Shown piece by piece: positions 10,128 through 18,128 of a DNA stretch of 22,575 nucleotides; within the stretch, counting starts at the first letter, position 1; every line of letters starts with the position of its first letter. Both the position numbers and the translations under genes were made by a program. The DNA is from a virus. The notes under the pieces were generated by a model. It saw nothing but the letters and a program-made list of their open reading frames with translations. It made no database searches and had not been told where the DNA came from. The DNA lies in the UHGV virus genome UHGV-1464116. One strand, given 5' to 3'.

Positions 10128-10503
10128 TGTAACAGATGTGCTTTTTGACCCCGATTTTTGCGACTTCAATTTGTGGGTAACACGCCGTGTGCAAACGGTG
10201 GATGAGGATGGGATCGGCAGCGACAGCGAAGTTAAAAAGCAGTTTGCCGGAGTCGTAACTGTTGATCGCTCTCTGGAAAACCGCCGTATGCAGGCAGGGC
10301 AGGTGATCAGCGGTGCAATTCTGATTGTGACGACTGAGCGACTGACGCAGGGACAGACTGGCCGTGATGCCGATATCGTGACGTATCAGGGCCGTGATTA
10401 TCGTGTGACCTTCGTCGACCCGTATACGGCTTACGGTGCTGGCTTCGTCCAGGCTCATTGTGAATTACTGCCGTTTGATGGGGGAACTCCCATTGAGCAA
10501 TAA
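10114..10503 (+). CDS. Putative head-tail joining protein
   Basis: 129 aa in the same operon with a short overlap. Confidence 0.55.
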   Translation: MPTLDVTDVLFDPDFCDFNLWVTRRVQTVDEDGIGSDSEVKKQFAGVVTVDRSLENRRMQAGQVISGAILIVTTERLTQGQTGRDADIVTYQGRDYRVTFVDPYTAYGAGFVQAHCELLPFDGGTPIEQ

Positions 10504-11041
10504 CACCAGCACAGAGCGCGGCTGGCTGACACCCACCAGCGGCGATCCGGCTTATGACGAAGCGCTCGACAGGCTGCTAAGCCAGTGGATGCGCAATGTT
10601 TCCGGCTTGCCGTCTGGAATGGTTCGTCCGCGCTGGCAGAAAAATCAGCCGCCACTGCCACCCGTTGAAACGAACTGGTGCGCGTTTGGCGTTACCGGGT
10701 TGCTCATTGATAACAACCCTGCATTCACCGGGCAGACTGAAGAGGGCGCTCAGCTCTGGAGGCATGAAACGTTCGAGTGCATGGCGTCGTTCTATGGTCC
10801 GGCTGGTATGTCTTATGCGTCCCGTTTTCGCGATGGTATATCTGTCCCGCAAAACAATGCTGAGCTGAACGCGCTTGGTTTATCCCTTGGCGACTATACC
10901 GCTCTGACCCCTTTCCCCGAACTTATCAACCAGCAATGGGTTCGCCGTTACGACATGACGGTGCGACTGCGCCGGAAGGTTGTCCGCGAGTATGGCATCA
11001 AATCGCTGGTGGAAGTGCCAGTCACCTTTTTTGGAGAATAA
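10478..11041 (+). CDS. Putative tail completion/terminator protein
   Basis: Track ORF 10436..11041 starts at GTG; ATG 10478 or TTG 10493 (preceded by GGGGGA) are alternative starts; lies just before the sheath gene. Confidence 0.5.
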   Translation: MGELPLSNNTSTERGWLTPTSGDPAYDEALDRLLSQWMRNVSGLPSGMVRPRWQKNQPPLPPVETNWCAFGVTGLLIDNNPAFTGQTEEGAQLWRHETFECMASFYGPAGMSYASRFRDGISVPQNNAELNALGLSLGDYTALTPFPELINQQWVRRYDMTVRLRRKVVREYGIKSLVEVPVTFFGE

Positions 11042-11044
11042 ACT

Positions 11045-12205
11045 ATGACGCAGGGCTTACCTGTATCCAACGTTGTAAACGTTGATGTGATCATCTCGCC
11101 GAAAGCGGCTACTGGTCGTAACTTCGGCGCATTGCTAATCCTTGGCTCTTCCACTGTCATTCCGGTGACAGAACGTACTCGCCTATATGCTTCCGTTGAG
11201 GACATTGGCGAAGACTTCGGTGTCGACAGCCCGGAATATAAAGCAGCGCAGGTTTTCTTCAGCCAGTCACCGAAGCCGACACAGGTTTATGTTGGTCGCT
11301 GGGCGAAGACGCTGAGTTCTTCCGAGAGTGGAAATACTGAAACTATCGTGCAAGCCGTTAATGCCTGCCTGCAATATACCAACTGGTATGGGCTGGTTGT
11401 CGCTGATGATGTTGTCGCTGGTGGCGATGTGCTTGATGCTGATGACGTGATTGAGGTCGCCAAACTTATTGAAGCGTCCAGCCTTAGCCGTATCTTTGGT
11501 GTGACCTCTGCCGACGCCGAGATTATCAGCACGACTTCGACGACCGATGTTGCGTCGAAATTAAAGGCTGGCAAGTATGCCCGTACCTTTATTCAGTATT
11601 CCACCAGCAGCCCTTACGCAGCGGTTTCTGCTTTCGGTCGTGCGTTTACTGTCAATTTCAACGGCAGCAATACCACCATTACCCTGAAGTTCAAACAGGA
11701 ACCAAGCGTAACCTACGAAACGTTGACGGTAGGCCAGGCGGCTGCGGTGGATACGAAGAATGCGAACGTATTCGTGTACTACGCCAACGACACGGCGATC
11801 CTGCAACAGGGTGTCATGGCGAACGGTGACTTCTTCGACGAGCGCCACGGGCTCGACTGGTTGCAGAACTACGTTCAGACCAACCTCTATAACCTGCTTT
11901 ACACCAGCACCACCAAAATTCCGCAGACTGATGCCGGTGTGACCCGTCTGCTTTCCAACGTTGAACAGTCCATGGATCAGTCCGTCACGAACGGTCTGGT
12001 AGCTGCTGGCGTGTGGAATGGTGGCCCTATCGGACAGCTGAATTCCGGCGATACGCTGACCAAAGGCTATTACGTGTATGCGCAACCGCTGTCCGAACAG
12101 GCGCAGGCCGACCGCGAAGCGCGCAAAGCACCGTTAATCCAGGTGGCCTGTAAGCTGGCTGGCGCAGTTCATTATGCCGATGTGCAGATCAACGTGGTTC
12201 GCTAA
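11045..12205 (+). CDS. Tail sheath protein
   Basis: 386 aa; GGAG RBS; followed by a tube-sized gene, a chaperone with frameshift and the tape measure, the canonical contractile-tail order. Confidence 0.7.
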
Positions 12206-12215
12206 GGAGCGATAA

Positions 12216-12656
12216 ATGGCAACTTATTCTTTTCTCGATGTAACCGCGTCGCTCACCGGGCCGACCGGCGTTATCGATCTTGGTCAGGGTTCTGCGAACT
12301 CTGAGGAAGGTATCACCCAGACCATGGGCGGCAACAAAAACACCATGACCATCGGTGCCGATGGCGAGGTGATGCACAGCCTGCACGCCGATAAGTCAGG
12401 CACCATTACGGTGACGCTACTCAAAACCTCTCCGGTGAATAAAAAGCTGTCTCTGGCGTATAACGCGCAAAGCCAGTCCTCTGCCACCTGGGGCAATAAC
12501 GTGATCGTCATTCGCAACACGGCATCGGGTGATATTTCTACTGCACGTTCGTGTGCATTCCAGAAACAGCCTGATTTCAATAACGCTAAAGAGGGCGGAA
12601 CCGTCGCATGGGTATTCGACTGCGGCAAGATTGACCAGCTTCTCGGGGAGTTTTAA
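12216..12656 (+). CDS. Tail tube protein
   Basis: 146 aa immediately after the sheath; GGAGCGATAA before ATG. Confidence 0.65.
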   Translation: MATYSFLDVTASLTGPTGVIDLGQGSANSEEGITQTMGGNKNTMTIGADGEVMHSLHADKSGTITVTLLKTSPVNKKLSLAYNAQSQSSATWGNNVIVIRNTASGDISTARSCAFQKQPDFNNAKEGGTVAWVFDCGKIDQLLGEF

Positions 12657-12659
12657 CGC

Positions 12660-13085
12660 ATGGAATTCGAAATTAAAGGCGTGAAATATCGCACCGCAAA
12701 GCTCAGCGTTTTCGAACAGCTGAAGGTGTCCCGCAAGCTGTTGCCGGTTCTGGCCGGGATGGTTTCTGACTTCCGGAGCGTTCAGGAGAAGATCAGCAGC
12801 AAAGACACCGAAGGCGCGATGGCTACCATCCTGCCAAAGATTGCCAATGCTGTGTCCGATCTGAGTGATGGCGACGTGGACGCTATCCTGTTCCCCTGTC
12901 TTTCCGTTGTTTCACGCGAGCACATGAAAGGCTGGGTGCCGGTCTGCCAGCATGGCGAAATGGCGTTTGACGATATCGACCTGCTGACCATGCTGCAACT
13001 GGTGGCGCGGGTGGTCGCCGACTCTCTGGGAAATTTTTTGCAAGGACTCCCTACCAGCGAGACGCCCACCCCGCCAGCGGAATAA
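12660..13085 (+). CDS. Tail assembly chaperone (short, in-frame product)
   Basis: 141 aa between tube and tape measure; contains slippery sequence GGGAAATTTTTTG near its 3' end. Confidence 0.65.
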   Translation: MEFEIKGVKYRTAKLSVFEQLKVSRKLLPVLAGMVSDFRSVQEKISSKDTEGAMATILPKIANAVSDLSDGDVDAILFPCLSVVSREHMKGWVPVCQHGEMAFDDIDLLTMLQLVARVVADSLGNFLQGLPTSETPTPPAE

Positions 13086-13273
13086 CCTTCAATAGCCTGC
13101 CGGGCGGTGAAGATTTTATTCTTCGTCCGGCGCTTGCCTTCCATATTGACCAGAAAGACCTTAACAGCGGTGCGGTAGATCTTTGCCGCATCGCGCTTCT
13201 CAATGACTACCTCGACATGCGCGAGGATAACGACGCCCGGATAGATAAATGGAGAGCGGCCAATGAGCGGTAA
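12660..13273 (+). CDS. Tail assembly chaperone, -1 frameshifted long product (G-T-like fusion)
   Basis: -1 frame is open with no start codon from 12971 to stop 13271-13273; slippery heptamer G_GGA_AAT at 13028..13034 (then T_TTT_TTG) in the zero frame; extension reads ...FFARTPYQRDAHPASGITFNSLPGGEDFILRPALAFHIDQKDLNSGAVDLCRIALLNDYLDMREDNDARIDKWRAANER. Confidence 0.5.
13028..13040 (+). other. Candidate programmed -1 ribosomal frameshift slippery site
   Basis: GGGAAATTTTTTG; G_GGA_AAT is in the X_XXY_YYZ register relative to the chaperone frame. Confidence 0.5.
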
Positions 13274-15275
13274 CGCAGATACGATTAAAGATTTCCTTGT
13301 TTCGCTGGGATTCGATATCGATCAGGCTGGCGCTAATAAGTTTGAAGCCGTGCTGAAAGGTGTTACCGCGAACGTTCTGAAGGTCGGCGCGGTGGTGGAA
13401 GGCGCAGCGCTGAGCATTGTCGGATTTACCACCCAGATCGCGAATGGTCTGGATAAAATTTACTGGGCATCCCAGCGGACGGGGGCCAGCGTCCAGGGCA
13501 TCAAAGCGCTGGGCTATGCCGCATCGCAAACCGGTGCCAGCGCCGAGTCGGCTATGTCCTCCCTCGAAGGGCTGGCGGGGTTCATGCGTAGCAATCCGGG
13601 GGCGGAAGGCTTCCTGAACCGCCTGGGTGTCCAGACCCGTGATGCCAGCGGAAAGATGCGTGATACTGCGGCCATCTTTACTGGCGTTGGGCAAAAGCTC
13701 AACAACATGCCGTATTACCGCGCGAAGCAATACGCGCAGATGCTTGGCATCGATGAAAACACGCTGATGGCGATGCGGCGCGGCATGAATGGCTTTACCG
13801 CCGATTACCAGTCGATGCTGCAAAAGACAGGGTTCAACGCTGATAAAGCGGCTGTTCAGTCCAACAAATTCATGACGTCCATGCGCGGGCTTACGTCGCT
13901 GTTCGGCATCATGCGGGACAAGATCGGCTCAAACCTCGCTGGTGGCCTGGCTGGTTCGCTGGACAGCCTGCGGCGGCGCATCCTCGACAATTTCCCGAAG
14001 ATTGAAGAGACGCTTACCAGAGTTATTAACGGCGTGATCTGGCTTGCGAACGCATTCACGAGAATGGCGTGGCGGCTGATACAGGGCGCTGGCTCTGTCA
14101 TCGACTGGTGGAAGCGTCTTGACGATGGCAGTAAAAATCTGCTGAAAATATTCGGTGCTCTACTTGTCGCATGGCGTCTGCTTAATTCTGCGTTCCTGAA
14201 ATCCCCGATTGGAATTATCACCACGCTGATTCTGGCGATCGGATTACTCTATGACGATTACCAGACGTGGAAAGAGGGCGGAAAAAGCCTGATTGACTGG
14301 AGCAAGTGGGAACCAGCAATAGAAAAGGCGAAAAAGGCAATTATCTGGCTGCGAGATAAGCTGTTGGAGCTAAAAGATTCTGTCGGTGGGTGGCAGAACT
14401 CACTGGAAATTTTGGCTACCTTCATTGCAGGGGTATGGTTAAGCAAAATAACCTCTGCATTTGCTAAGTTAGCCGGAATACCTATGCCGCCATGGCTGAA
14501 GCTGTGGGCTATTTATGCCGGGTATCTGGTGGACGACAGGCATAATATTAAAGAAAGCGCTAAATCATCATGGGACTACACCAAAGGAAACATCGGAGAT
14601 GCGCTCCGCTGGATGGGGTTTAATACCGATTTTGGCCGCAATCCCAATACCGTGTATGGCGCGAATATTCAGTCAGATATTCCAGGCGCTGAACCGGAGC
14701 AATACGCCCAGTCAGTGAAGCGCCCACAAGCCACAGCCCAGGGTAAGGTATTGCTCGACTGGATGGGGCCAATGTTCAATAAACTGGAGTCGCTTTATCA
14801 GCTGCCAGCTGGCCTGTTGAAAAGCGTGGCGATCACCGAGTCGGGTGGTAACCAGTTCGCCATATCCGGCGCAGGCGCGAAAGGACTGTTTCAGTTTATG
14901 GATGGCACGGCGCGCGACATGGGCCTGCGTGGGAATGATGTATTCGACCCGGAAAAGTCAGCTCAGGCAGCCGCTAAGTACCTCAGCCAGCTGTTGCGGC
15001 AGAACGGCGGAGACCTTAGCAAAGCACTGGCATCATATAACTGGGGGATCGGGAATGTTAAGCGTTATGGAATGGGGCTAATGCCGCAGGAAACGCGCAA
15101 TTACATTCCGAAAGTAATGAGCAATATGCCCACCAGCGCCCCGGTGATTCAGCAGGAAACGAACATTAACATCCACGGCGTTTCCGATCCTCGCGAAGCT
15201 GCCCGTTTGACTGTTGACCGTCAAAAGGGCGTGAATTCACAGTTAACCCAGCAACTCCCCGCAGGACCGAGATAA
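13263..15275 (+). CDS. Tail tape measure protein with C-terminal lytic transglycosylase (SLT) domain
   Basis: 670 aa; hydrophobic segments in the middle; C-terminal SLT-like motifs AITESGGNQ (Glu codon at 14838-14840), GLFQFM, ASYNWGIGN. Confidence 0.85.
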   Translation: MSGNADTIKDFLVSLGFDIDQAGANKFEAVLKGVTANVLKVGAVVEGAALSIVGFTTQIANGLDKIYWASQRTGASVQGIKALGYAASQTGASAESAMSSLEGLAGFMRSNPGAEGFLNRLGVQTRDASGKMRDTAAIFTGVGQKLNNMPYYRAKQYAQMLGIDENTLMAMRRGMNGFTADYQSMLQKTGFNADKAAVQSNKFMTSMRGLTSLFGIMRDKIGSNLAGGLAGSLDSLRRRILDNFPKIEETLTRVINGVIWLANAFTRMAWRLIQGAGSVIDWWKRLDDGSKNLLKIFGALLVAWRLLNSAFLKSPIGIITTLILAIGLLYDDYQTWKEGGKSLIDWSKWEPAIEKAKKAIIWLRDKLLELKDSVGGWQNSLEILATFIAGVWLSKITSAFAKLAGIPMPPWLKLWAIYAGYLVDDRHNIKESAKSSWDYTKGNIGDALRWMGFNTDFGRNPNTVYGANIQSDIPGAEPEQYAQSVKRPQATAQGKVLLDWMGPMFNKLESLYQLPAGLLKSVAITESGGNQFAISGAGAKGLFQFMDGTARDMGLRGNDVFDPEKSAQAAAKYLSQLLRQNGGDLSKALASYNWGIGNVKRYGMGLMPQETRNYIPKVMSNMPTSAPVIQQETNINIHGVSDPREAARLTVDRQKGVNSQLTQQLPAGPR

Positions 15276-15877
15276 TGGATATTTTATCAGCGATTTTTCG
15301 CCAGCAATCCCGGCGAATTGGCCTGCTGATCCCCAGCGTGGTCGTCTCCGAAAAGCATTCTGATGCGCTCGAAATTACTGAGCACCCGGTGGAGAAGCCA
15401 ACAACGAATAGCGCTTCGGGCTTCATCGCCGATCATGCGTATAAGCGCCCCAGCGAAGTCACAATGGAATGCGGCTTCGCTGGTGGCGGTTCGTTGCTGG
15501 ACTTCATTGATACATCTTCAATCGGCCTCAGCGCCGGACTAAGCCCGAAAGAGACCTATCAGCAACTGCTGGATCTCCAGTCCTCTCGGGTGCCGTTCGA
15601 TGTGGTGACCGGAAAGCGGGTGTACAGCAATATGCTGGTGCGAGCCATCGAGGTGACAACGGACAAAACCAGCGAAAACGTGCTGAACTGCACGCTTACC
15701 CTGCGTGAAGTGATCATGTCGCAAACGCAGAGCGTTAGTGTTGCTGATAAATCAGATATGCAGGATGGCGTCAGCACATCGGCGGTGCAAAATTCCGGGA
15801 CGAAATCCACTACACAGCCAAACGAATCCTTGCTGAGCCAGCTTGGCGGAAGCGTTACATCAGCATTCGGGGGATGA
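15275..15877 (+). CDS. Tail/baseplate protein downstream of tape measure (unassigned)
   Basis: 200 aa; ATGG overlap with tape measure stop; position equivalent to the post-tape-measure gene of Mu-like tails. Confidence 0.5.
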   Translation: MDILSAIFRQQSRRIGLLIPSVVVSEKHSDALEITEHPVEKPTTNSASGFIADHAYKRPSEVTMECGFAGGGSLLDFIDTSSIGLSAGLSPKETYQQLLDLQSSRVPFDVVTGKRVYSNMLVRAIEVTTDKTSENVLNCTLTLREVIMSQTQSVSVADKSDMQDGVSTSAVQNSGTKSTTQPNESLLSQLGGSVTSAFGG

Positions 15878-16186: not shown

Positions 16187-17251
16187 ATGTCTCTTAACTG
16201 GATGCGCCATTTTGAGCTGCAACTGTTGGACCAGAACGGGCAGGGCGTTTCCCTGTCTGACTTTAAGGTCACGTTCCAGATCGAGTGGGCAGACACACGC
16301 TGGCCGCGCGTGGCGAACGTGAAAATTTACAACCTTTCGACCGATACCACGAACAAGATACTGGGGCAGGAGTTTGCCAAAATTCGCATCATTGCCGGGT
16401 ATGACGGTATAGCGCCGGATGTTGATGCGAGCCAGGTCGGCGTCGCCCGAGAGATTTCACCAGACCAGATAGGGCAGGTGAACGGTCAGAACTACGGCCT
16501 GATTTTTGACGGTGATATTCGCTTTACCGTAACCGGGAAGGACAACATTACCGATTCCTGGGTGTTGATTCAGGCTATTGGAGATCATGAAGCGTTCCTC
16601 TACGCGACTACCATCACTACGCTTGCCGCTGGCTATACCGTTGCGGATCTGCACCGGGCGACGATGCAGGATTTCAACGTGTTCGGCGTGACACAGGGCA
16701 TTACCGGCGATTTTCCTGATACCGTGTTTCCTCGTGGCCGCGCGATTTACTCATCCACTCGTAACGTGATGGATAATATTGCAGCGCAGTGCAAAGCGAC
16801 ATGGCAGCTGGTGGATGGTCAGGTCCAGATGGTGCCGGAGGATAAATATATTCACGAAGCCATTGTGTTGAATGCCAATACTGGCCTGATTGGTATGCCG
16901 CAACAGACGATGGGCGGCGGCGTAAACGTGCGGTGCCTGATAAACCCAAACATCCGCATTAATGGTCTTATCCAGCTCGATCAGGCTTCGGTGTACCGCG
17001 CGTCGCTCGGTAATAGCGAAATCGCACAGTCGCCCGGGCGTATCACCGAAACTGAAGAGAATGGCAACCGTGTGCTGACCGGTACGACGTCACAGGCTGC
17101 CAGCATTGCGACGGATGGCGTTTATATCGTCAAAGCTATCGACTATACTGGCGACACCAGAGGTCAGGCGTGGTACATGGATTTGATGTGCTTTGCGCGT
17201 GGCAGTCGTGAATTATATAGTCAGTCGACGCTCCAAAAAGTACAGGTGTGA
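16187..17251 (+). CDS. Baseplate hub-like protein (P2 gpD / Mu gp44-like position)
   Basis: 354 aa; positioned before the spike protein as in Mu-like baseplates; assignment by synteny and size. Confidence 0.55.
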   Translation: MSLNWMRHFELQLLDQNGQGVSLSDFKVTFQIEWADTRWPRVANVKIYNLSTDTTNKILGQEFAKIRIIAGYDGIAPDVDASQVGVAREISPDQIGQVNGQNYGLIFDGDIRFTVTGKDNITDSWVLIQAIGDHEAFLYATTITTLAAGYTVADLHRATMQDFNVFGVTQGITGDFPDTVFPRGRAIYSSTRNVMDNIAAQCKATWQLVDGQVQMVPEDKYIHEAIVLNANTGLIGMPQQTMGGGVNVRCLINPNIRINGLIQLDQASVYRASLGNSEIAQSPGRITETEENGNRVLTGTTSQAASIATDGVYIVKAIDYTGDTRGQAWYMDLMCFARGSRELYSQSTLQKVQV

Positions 17252-17252
17252 T

Positions 17253-17603
17253 ATGACAAAAATTAGGAATGTTATCTGCGGAGCCGTTCTTTCGTTGGTC
17301 GGAGCTTCAACTGCAATGGCTGATACCCAATGCGGGCCATATCGCCTCACCGCAGGTAATGATGGTTTTATGCATATTAATGGTGTAAAGCCAGAAAACC
17401 AGAAAATGACCTTTCTGAAAGCCAAGGAAGATTATCAAAATCTCAAGATGGAATGGACGGTTGCAACTAATCAACCCGGCCGCTGGGTTGGGCTTGAGTA
17501 CATCAAGCGCAACGGCAAAGCCATTCTCAACGCACAGTGGCTGCAAGCCAGCATGGATTCGCCGCGTCAGTATGCAACATACGACTGCCGAAAAGTAAAA
17601 TAG
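17253..17603 (+). CDS. Secreted (signal-peptide) protein of unknown function, accessory/moron gene
   Basis: Track ORF 17193..17603; ATG 17253 gives MTKIRNVICGAVLSLVGASTAMA|DTQC.. with a typical Sec signal and AXA cleavage site; two Cys in mature part; lower GC than flanking tail genes. Confidence 0.6.
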   Translation: MTKIRNVICGAVLSLVGASTAMADTQCGPYRLTAGNDGFMHINGVKPENQKMTFLKAKEDYQNLKMEWTVATNQPGRWVGLEYIKRNGKAILNAQWLQASMDSPRQYATYDCRKVK

Positions 17604-17621
17604 CCCGCCAGATAGGCGGGC
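17603..17621 (-). terminator. Hairpin terminator between convergent accessory genes
   Basis: GCCCGCC-AGATA-GGCGGGC perfect 7-bp stem; on the minus strand it is followed by CTATTTTACTTTT, 5 nt downstream of the DUF4236 gene stop. Confidence 0.5.
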
Positions 17622-17626
17622 ATGCG

Positions 17627-17917
17627 TCAAAAATATTGAGCTTTAATTATAATAAACACAATAATTACGAACAGGATGTTTCTAATTATTTTTTGCTTAT
17701 GAGTAAGTTGTTTTTTTTCTGTCGATTTCCCGGGAGAGTAAAGGTTAGTGGTATGCGACAGCCCCGTGCCGGGAAGGCCATTTGTCATCTTTACGCCTTT
17801 TTTTCCGATGTTAATGGTGGAACCTTTACCACCAATTGAAGTGCTTACTCCGCTTTTACTAATGTTGATCGCGAGTCCGGGCGCAATCCGGATTCTTTTA
17901 CGAAATCTAAATCCCAT
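17627..17917 (-). CDS. DUF4236-like small membrane protein
   Basis: N-terminus MGFRFRKRIRIAPGLAINISKSGVSTSIGGKG...GLPGTGLSHT matches the DUF4236 signature as I recall it; C-terminal hydrophobic helix ILFVIIVFIII; AGGAG 6 nt upstream of ATG; very AT-rich codon usage. Confidence 0.7.
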   Translation of the reverse strand: MGFRFRKRIRIAPGLAINISKSGVSTSIGGKGSTINIGKKGVKMTNGLPGTGLSHTTNLYSPGKSTEKKQLTHKQKIIRNILFVIIVFIIIKAQYF

Positions 17918-18104
17918 TTGTTACTCCTGTAGTCAATAATGCGATGGTGCAGGTCCACTCTATGGCGGCTTCATGGCTGAAATTGATTTTCAATGCTTAC
18001 TTGTTGCAAACATATCCTAATACACCTTGTGAATGTGTGCCATTGCAGCGGAAAAGCCTTACTTCACACTGATGTAGCTTAGTTACTAAGAGATAATTGA
18101 TACC

Positions 18105-18128
18105 AAACCAGCTTCGGCTGGTTTTTTT
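18105..18128 (+). terminator. Strong intrinsic terminator immediately upstream of the spike gene
   Basis: AAACCAGC-TTCG-GCTGGTTT followed by TTTTTTT; UUCG tetraloop. Confidence 0.55.

Follow-up and report, generated by a model that had tools for sequence, protein, structure and literature searches.

Programmed -1 ribosomal frameshifting predicted in the tail assembly chaperone gene of a contractile-tailed prophage

Judging from its own sequence and those of its relatives, the gene for the tail assembly chaperone in a prophage with a contractile tail is, with high probability, subject to programmed -1 ribosomal frameshifting. The gene lies in a window (the whole stretch of DNA that was analysed) of 22,575 nucleotides from UHGV virus genome UHGV-1464116. 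The majority of ribosomes would read positions 12660-13085 and release a 141-amino-acid chaperone, and a minority would slip back by one base within positions 13028-13040 and go on in the -1 frame to the TAA at 13271-13273. The outcome would be a long form of 204 amino acids, the final 77 to 79 or so of which make up the DUF6889 domain. By analogy with gpG and gpGT of phage lambda, the N-terminal part that is common to both forms would coat the tape measure protein and the extension would recruit the tube protein, with the rate of slipping fixing the short-to-long ratio that governs tail assembly. We infer from the same analogy that the 204-amino-acid form works like lambda gpGT.

The gene content of the window, as seen in Pfam and PHROG matches, is that of the late region of a temperate, contractile-tailed prophage. 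Genes are arranged in the order Rz, Rha, small and large terminase subunits, portal, Mu-F-like protein, DUF2213, cement protein, major capsid, neck proteins, sheath, tube, chaperone, tape measure and baseplate. The window shares 98% identity with prophages of E. coli genomes and 97% with Citrobacter phage Omnitron. Its chaperone gene is found between the tube gene (12216-12656) and the tape measure gene (13263-15275), as in the tail-chaperone frameshift class of long-tailed dsDNA phages defined by Xu, Hendrix and Duda (2004). The features of this part of the window are as follows.

11045..12205, plus strand: tail sheath protein (Pfam DUF3383, E=1e-101; phrog_205 'tail sheath', E=1.7e-128)
12216..12656, plus strand: tail tube protein (Pfam KPP10_Orf10, E=5.8e-60; PGAP name 'DUF3277 family protein')
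12660..13085, plus strand: tail assembly chaperone, short form, 141 amino acids by standard translation (ORF, stop TAA at 13083-13085)
12971..13033, plus strand: upstream stretch of the open -1 frame, which ribosomes are not expected to read (0 to 65 codons long among relatives, without a start codon)
13028..13040, plus strand: tract G GGA AAT TTT TTG, three overlapping in-register heptamers (from sequence and phasing)
13028..13034, 13031..13037 and 13034..13040, plus strand: the heptamers G_GGA_AAT, A_AAT_TTT and T_TTT_TTG, respectively (X_XXY_YYZ phasing relative to the frame of 12660)
13034..13037, plus strand: U_UUU at the codon of the conserved Phe126, kept more widely in the family than any other element (149 of 154 loci)
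13034..13273, plus strand: -1 extension, the C-terminal domain of the predicted long chaperone, 77-79 codons plus TAA (from translation and domain matches)
13251..13256, plus strand: GGAGAG, Shine-Dalgarno sequence of the tape measure gene, inside the end of the -1 extension in codons TGG AGA (from sequence)
13263..15275, plus strand: tape measure protein carrying an SLT lytic transglycosylase domain at its C-terminus (phrog_2276, E=5e-222; Pfam SLT, E=3e-25)

The product of the 0 frame matches Pfam family Phage_TAC_15 (E=4.4e-33; 114.9 bits against a cut-off of 22) and phrog_1688 'tail assembly chaperone' (E=3.4e-57). In the -1 frame, the codons of which begin at positions that leave a remainder of 2 on division by 3, a stop at 12968-12970 is followed by 100 open codons (12971-13270) and then by the TAA at 13271-13273. 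The part of this frame that follows the slippery tract (13034-13270) matches Pfam DUF6889 with E=7e-12, its 45.3 bits being above the curated cut-off of 23.9, and phrog_4364 with E=1.2e-17. An earlier reading made from the sequence only had held that the gap between the chaperone stop (13085) and the tape measure start (13263) is not empty; the DUF6889 and phrog_4364 matches, together with coding-type entropy, bear this out. The -1 frame that it described as open for about 100 codons from 12971 to 13270 is confirmed too, and its figure of about 200 amino acids for the fusion product agrees well with the 204 amino acids computed here from the window sequence. Its statement that the frame has no start codon stands for the region upstream of 13217, where no ATG, GTG or TTG was found, but not for the whole frame: an ATG at 13217-13219, 18 codons before the stop, is the sole start-type codon. 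As a rough estimate of chance, only 2.9% of the 6,665 in-gene codon positions in the window have at least 79 open -1 codons downstream, and the pattern goes beyond what chance would give. The end of the extension overlaps the start of the tape measure gene by 11 nt, and the TGG AGA codons there (13250-13258; alignment columns 75-76) are near-invariant at all three positions because they carry the tape measure Shine-Dalgarno sequence, so that coding and signal constraint act together. The translation and the domain matches support the proposal that the -1 extension encodes the second half of a longer chaperone, which would be reached by a slip back of one base.

Comparison with relatives points the same way. 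We sampled 71 loci by taking one genome for each species, and added 80 viral contigs as well as some 50 phage loci of greater divergence; these loci are interrelated, and counts over them are not counts of independent events. Translations of the extension from 66 unique enterobacterial alleles can be aligned as protein, and none is interrupted by a premature stop. Past the chaperone stop, mean entropy in these alleles is 0.75, 0.59 and 1.37 at -1 codon positions 1, 2 and 3, the signature of purifying selection on the -1 frame. In the 42-nt overlap the -1 translation has a mean identity of 59%, against 41.5% for the 0 frame, and the -1 protein is conserved right from the slippery tract, 48 nt ahead of the chaperone stop, beginning with the motif FFxRxP. 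No conserved start codon was found before column 58 of 85 in the 66 alleles; in many of them, as in the window, the first -1 start codon appears only well inside the conserved domain. The sequence-only reading had proposed a comparison with homologous chaperone pairs in related phages, and this shows that a long -1 frame (at least 70 open codons from the motif) is kept in 154 of 158 unique loci that range from Enterobacterales to Acinetobacter and Burkholderia; the remaining four comprise two with a -1 stop immediately ahead of the T-run and two that are truncated. The two-frame layout and a slippery tract at the same codons are present in about 150 unique loci, down to roughly 30% protein identity. 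When the fusion was used as a query against phage records, 35 of 40 matched over at least 80% of its length in two frames, with identities as low as 29%. Protein-coding selection on the -1 frame and a layout that is kept in diverged relatives both characterise the chaperone-frameshift class, as does a second, -1 open reading frame that shares sequence with the 3' end of the first and lacks a start codon and ribosome binding site of its own. The match to the conserved frameshift of dsDNA phage tail chaperones that had been proposed from the sequence is thus upheld by gene position, overlap, in-register slippery site and conservation.

The slippery tract is itself unusual in the window: its 26 ORFs contain 21 in-register heptamers in total, and three consecutive ones occur only at 13028-13040. 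G_GGA_AAT and T_TTT_TTG had already been recognised, correctly in register, whereas A_AAT_TTT between them had been missed. Among 62 unique alleles, third-position entropy at the codons GGA AAT TTT TTG is 0.21, 0.00, 0.00 and 0.44, compared with 1.0-1.8 at nearby strictly conserved Asp, Ser, Val and Phe residues. Synonymous variation therefore collapses only on these four codons, and the neighbouring conserved residues vary freely. The tract is unchanged in 79 of the 80 viral contigs.

Among more distant relatives the tract varies in ways that bear on the codon at which the slip would take place. A heptamer is present at the x-Phe codons in 144 of the 154 long-frame loci, at Gly-x in 126 and at Phe-x in 122. 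The tetramer U_UUU at the Phe codon is kept in 149 of the 154, and also in both L032 and L060; in five loci it stands alone, with no full heptamer. L032 reads GGT AGT TTT TTT and L060 reads GGT GAT TTT TTG. Both are without GGGAAAT and have a -1 stop across its position, which indicates that the T-run alone can serve there. Seven enterobacterial genome loci have C or T instead of the first G before GGAAAT. The Burkholderia type, which includes phage Magia, has C_CCT_TTT at the homologous codons, Ralstonia has G_GGT_TTT and T_TTT_TTC, and the Acinetobacter type has A_AAT_TTT with or without the leading G, the first G being lost in loci that read TTA GGA or CTA GGA. The T-run has been lost, with the -1 extension whole, from a Salmonella enterica locus (L061; GGA AAT ATT TTG) and from Bordetella-type loci (L156 and L176-L180; GGA AAT ACT TTC), where G_GGA_AAT is the only canonical heptamer. 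No single heptamer is common to every clade among the 158 unique loci. This pattern suggests that the slip codon has moved in the course of the family's evolution.

The main slip is most likely on the T-run (A_AAU_UUU, U_UUU_UUG or both), and the likeliest core of the slip is U_UUU at 13034-13037. Of the three heptamers, G_GGA_AAT, which the sequence-only reading had named first, is the least supported; it is the T-run heptamers that carry the comparative signal, in L032, in L060 and over the 154 loci. In one option, Phe-tRNA on the UUU at 13035-13037 would slip in the A site (A_AAU_UUU) to give the junction ...SLGNFF-ARTPY; one codon later, a slip on U_UUU_UUG, the motif of P2 E/E+E', would give ...SLGNFL-ARTPY. 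G_GGA_AAU may add to the slipping. The predicted tryptic junction peptide is VVADSLGNFFAR for a slip on G_GGA_AAU or A_AAU_UUU, which the peptide cannot tell apart because both give NFFA, and VVADSLGNFLAR for a slip on U_UUU_UUG; the counterpart from the unshifted 141-amino-acid chaperone is predicted to be VVADSLGNFLQGLPTSETPTPPAE.

Reporter data from E. coli (Sharma 2014, Table S3) show that all three heptamers are weak on their own, against a background of about 0.055%. Frameshifting on GGGAAAU was 0.069% without a stimulator, 0.112% with the IS911 stimulators and 1.05% with the IS3 pseudoknot; the corresponding values were 0.070%, 0.355% and 11.4% for AAAUUUU, the most responsive of the three to a stimulator, and 0.118%, 0.247% and 0.765% for UUUUUUG. 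Our search for stimulators of this kind at the chaperone tract found no significant downstream RNA fold (13041-13130, z=-1.36), and the consensus fold of 18 diverged loci came to -1.3 kcal/mol with four pairs and no covariation or compensatory change. A downstream AAGGA was dismissed as a stimulator since it is not conserved within the clade. Upstream, no Shine-Dalgarno-like element conserved across clades was found. The sequence GGTGGTC at 13010-13016, 17 nt upstream of the T-run, pairs with the 3' end of 16S rRNA (GAUCACC, with one G-U pair), and the GTG codon inside it is kept in 58 of 62 alleles; phage P2 has the same heptanucleotide 2 nt upstream of its slip site (L205, 670-676). We did not count GGTGGTC as an upstream stimulator: other clades do not have it, its spacing is unlike that in P2, and it may be a chance product of Val-Val codons. 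P2 is reported to shift two to three times more efficiently than lambda despite having no RNA structure, so reporter values for isolated heptamers may understate what happens in the natural context. We give roughly even odds to a composite site, in which two or three heptamers would each add a little and so offset the missing stimulator, and in which the active codon would have drifted within a three-codon window: C_CCU_UUU in Burkholderia, A_AAU_UUU in Acinetobacter, only G_GGA_AAU in Bordetella and only U_UUU_UUN in L032 and L060.

Other explanations of the open frame have to be set against programmed frameshifting. That the open -1 frame and its heptamers are coincidental, with no long product at all, might be argued from the weakness of each heptamer alone in reporters; the coding-type conservation, the domain family matches, the spread over distant hosts and the frozen synonymous sites make this almost inconceivable. 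Another proposal is that the DUF6889 region is a separate small gene, with translation beginning at a non-canonical codon (ATA at 13082) or resuming by re-initiation once the chaperone has been terminated. Current annotation leans this way: PGAP calls a 63-amino-acid 'DUF6889 family protein', equivalent to 13082-13273, in E. coli genomes, and separate small ORFs are annotated in Burkholderia phage BgManors32 and Edwardsiella phage ZHS. Yet the annotated start codon is an ATA, the -1 frame of the window has no ATG, GTG or TTG before 13217, and the 66 alleles share no start before column 58 of 85. Moreover, -1 conservation starts at the slippery tract, 48 nt upstream of the chaperone stop, where it exceeds that of the 0 frame, and a separate gene leaves the frozen synonymous sites at GGA AAT TTT TTG unexplained. 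We regard a separate gene as highly improbable. The stand-alone ATA-start gene, which PGAP calls in all 15 listed E. coli genomes (for example L001, 2383-2574), is best read as an artefact of an unannotated frameshift.

The two remaining alternatives accept a fused product and differ over how or where the shift is made. RNA polymerase might add one U on the T6 run, giving an edited mRNA that is read without any ribosomal shift: the shift site does include a homopolymer (T6, or T7 in L032), and one extra U in the mRNA would give exactly the ...NFFA... fusion. A T7 in one public assembly gives an in-frame fusion of 213 amino acids (P0004; L153, 1899-1905, Logan assembly SRR23924998). We did not accept P0004 as proof of the fusion, because it is a single T7 assembly with a possible homopolymer error; the T7 may be an error of this kind, or it may be genuine and lead to the long form alone. 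In bacteria, RNA polymerase is described as slipping productively on runs of about 8-9 or more, next to which T6 is short. Related clades keep the two frames with only T4 (CCT TTT ATT, AAT TTT ATT) or with no T-run (GGA AAT ACT TTC), so that only tRNA re-pairing motifs are left there, and the identical motif of P2 is treated in the literature as a translational frameshift. Transcriptional slippage thus appears very unlikely, and we infer that the ribosome rather than RNA polymerase makes the shift. The frameshift could also be real but take place mainly at G_GGA_AAT (13028-13034), a lambda-like heptamer. This heptamer is in register, its Gly codon, the rare GGA, persists in 60 of 62 alleles, it is the only canonical site in the Bordetella-type clade and in Salmonella L061, and with a strong pseudoknot it reaches 1.05% in E. 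coli, slightly above the 0.77% of UUUUUUG. Against this, it is absent from L032 and L060, where a -1 stop lies across it, and its first G is lost in the seven enterobacterial loci and in the TTA/CTA GGA loci of the Acinetobacter type. Without a stimulator it is at background level (0.069% versus 0.055%), and the A of its GGA is explained equally well by the middle heptamer, A_AAT_TTT. A main slip at G_GGA_AAT is therefore rather unlikely, and ribosomal slipping on the T-run is the reading that we carry forward.

One of the closest known systems is E/E+E' of P2, a contractile-tailed temperate coliphage, whose -1 frameshift in the FETUD tail operon was described by Christie et al. (2002; as cited in PMC3091744). 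In P2, as in the window, the gene is small and has the tube gene on one side and the tape measure gene on the other. The two have the slip motif T_TTT_TTG in common, with no difference in phase (GGT TTT TTG in P2, with the site annotated just after the G), the -1 ORF is without its own start in both, and it overlaps the start of the tape measure gene by 8 nt in P2 (E+E' on gene T) and by 11 nt in the window. P2 has no downstream RNA structure and none was found downstream of the tract at 13028-13040. The two differ in that P2 has one heptamer and the window three overlapping ones, and in the 0-frame tail after the slip, which is 7 codons in P2 and 15 in the window. No sequence homology was detectable by BLASTP between P2 gpE (91 amino acids) and the 141-amino-acid chaperone (E=32).

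In lambda, G binds the tape measure protein and T binds the tube subunit, with a ratio of about 30:1 (Levin 1993; Xu, Hendrix and Duda 2004, 2013, 2014; summarised in PMC5009743, the Atkins 2016 review). The G/GT pair occupies the same slot as the pair in the window, between the genes for the major tail protein and the tape measure. A -1 shift at low level gives it short and long forms with a common N-terminus, and the counterpart in the window is predicted. Lambda shifts on G_GGA_AAG with re-pairing of the cognate Lys tRNA; the corresponding heptamer in the window ends in T (Asn) and is the least supported site there, and the tail is of the myovirus type with a sheath, unlike that of lambda. 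The Pfam scan gave only Phage_TAC_15 for the 0 frame and DUF6889 for the extension, neither of which is a lambda G/T family, and no NCBIfam model matched. The label 'G/GT-type' that the gene had been given consequently survives as an analogy and not as a family assignment, the motif being that of P2 E/E+E'.

Closer relatives have been annotated as frameshifted already. Klebsiella phage Mulock (MN098327) has the same family and gene order, matches the fusion query at 56% identity in two frames and has an identical tract, TTG GGA AAT TTT TTG. Burkholderia phage Magia (NC_070954) also shares the family and gene order, matches the query in two frames at about 35% identity, and has C_CCT_TTT at the codons of A_AAT_TTT. 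The homologues in both phages were deposited as joined CDSs named 'tape measure chaperone frameshift product'. The genome paper on Magia says that a programmed frameshift had been found; the paper on Mulock is silent on the point, and we found no experimental support for the product of either phage. A related tail module, with a KPP10-type tube, an E217-type sheath and cement proteins, is found in the Pakpunavirus/Vandenendeviridae group, whose TAC-N and TAC-NC proteins were described in a 2025 study of phage Adele (PMC12846349). That study makes the same frameshift argument and notes that annotators regularly mistake the downstream ORF for a hypothetical gene in its own right. The phages of the Adele group are lytic Pseudomonas phages with the motif GTTTTT, as against AATTTTTTG, and their likeness to the window is one of the tail module.

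An AlphaFold model of a fused homologue has a confident N-terminal domain, with the slip site at the end of the last helix of that domain; the extension is modelled with low confidence because few sequences cover it. In BFVD the model finds viral proteins that carry the name tail assembly chaperone (E=4.5e-10). A profile search found no relatives of solved structure, and a Foldseek search against the PDB returned no match with E below 1.

If the site is indeed composite, DUF6889 would not be an independent family and would instead be the frameshift-encoded C-terminal domain of Phage_TAC_15 chaperones. The 204-amino-acid long chaperone should be recorded as a joined CDS, and the ATA-start 'DUF6889 family protein' of RefSeq E. 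coli genomes should be retired together with the 'hypothetical protein' calls in several phage records. DUF6889, of which we found no mention in the literature, can in this way be given a role. The mechanism is well known and already annotated in the family of Mulock and Magia: it is an ordinary phage trick that would not surprise those who work on phages or recoding, and opens no question of long standing. The chaperone family does offer a clean natural series on a stimulator-free slip site that moves among adjacent codons.

Three other places in the window deserve mention. The neck terminator gene (10436-11041) contains an in-register C_CCT_TTC with T_TTC_CCC at 10909-10918, from which the -1 frame is open for 58 codons to 11085, beyond the neck terminator stop and across the start of the sheath gene. 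An in-register A_AAG_GGC heptamer occurs at 15224-15230, 51 nt before the tape measure stop, and the -1 frame from it leads directly into the gene for a Dit-like baseplate protein (15275-15877); this is probably a coincidence, because the frame of the Dit-like gene is simply open upstream of its own ATG. Between the genes for the baseplate hub and the gpV-like spike there is a stretch of about 910 nt (17203-18114) without a long plus-strand ORF, which encodes on the minus strand a 96-amino-acid protein (17627-17917; Pfam DUF4236, E=1.8e-20) followed by one of 107 amino acids (17307-17630). The prophage of E. coli AR_0118, otherwise 98% identical, has an unrelated plus-strand gene of 371 amino acids in this slot, and the stretch looks like a swapped accessory (moron) cassette within the tail operon.
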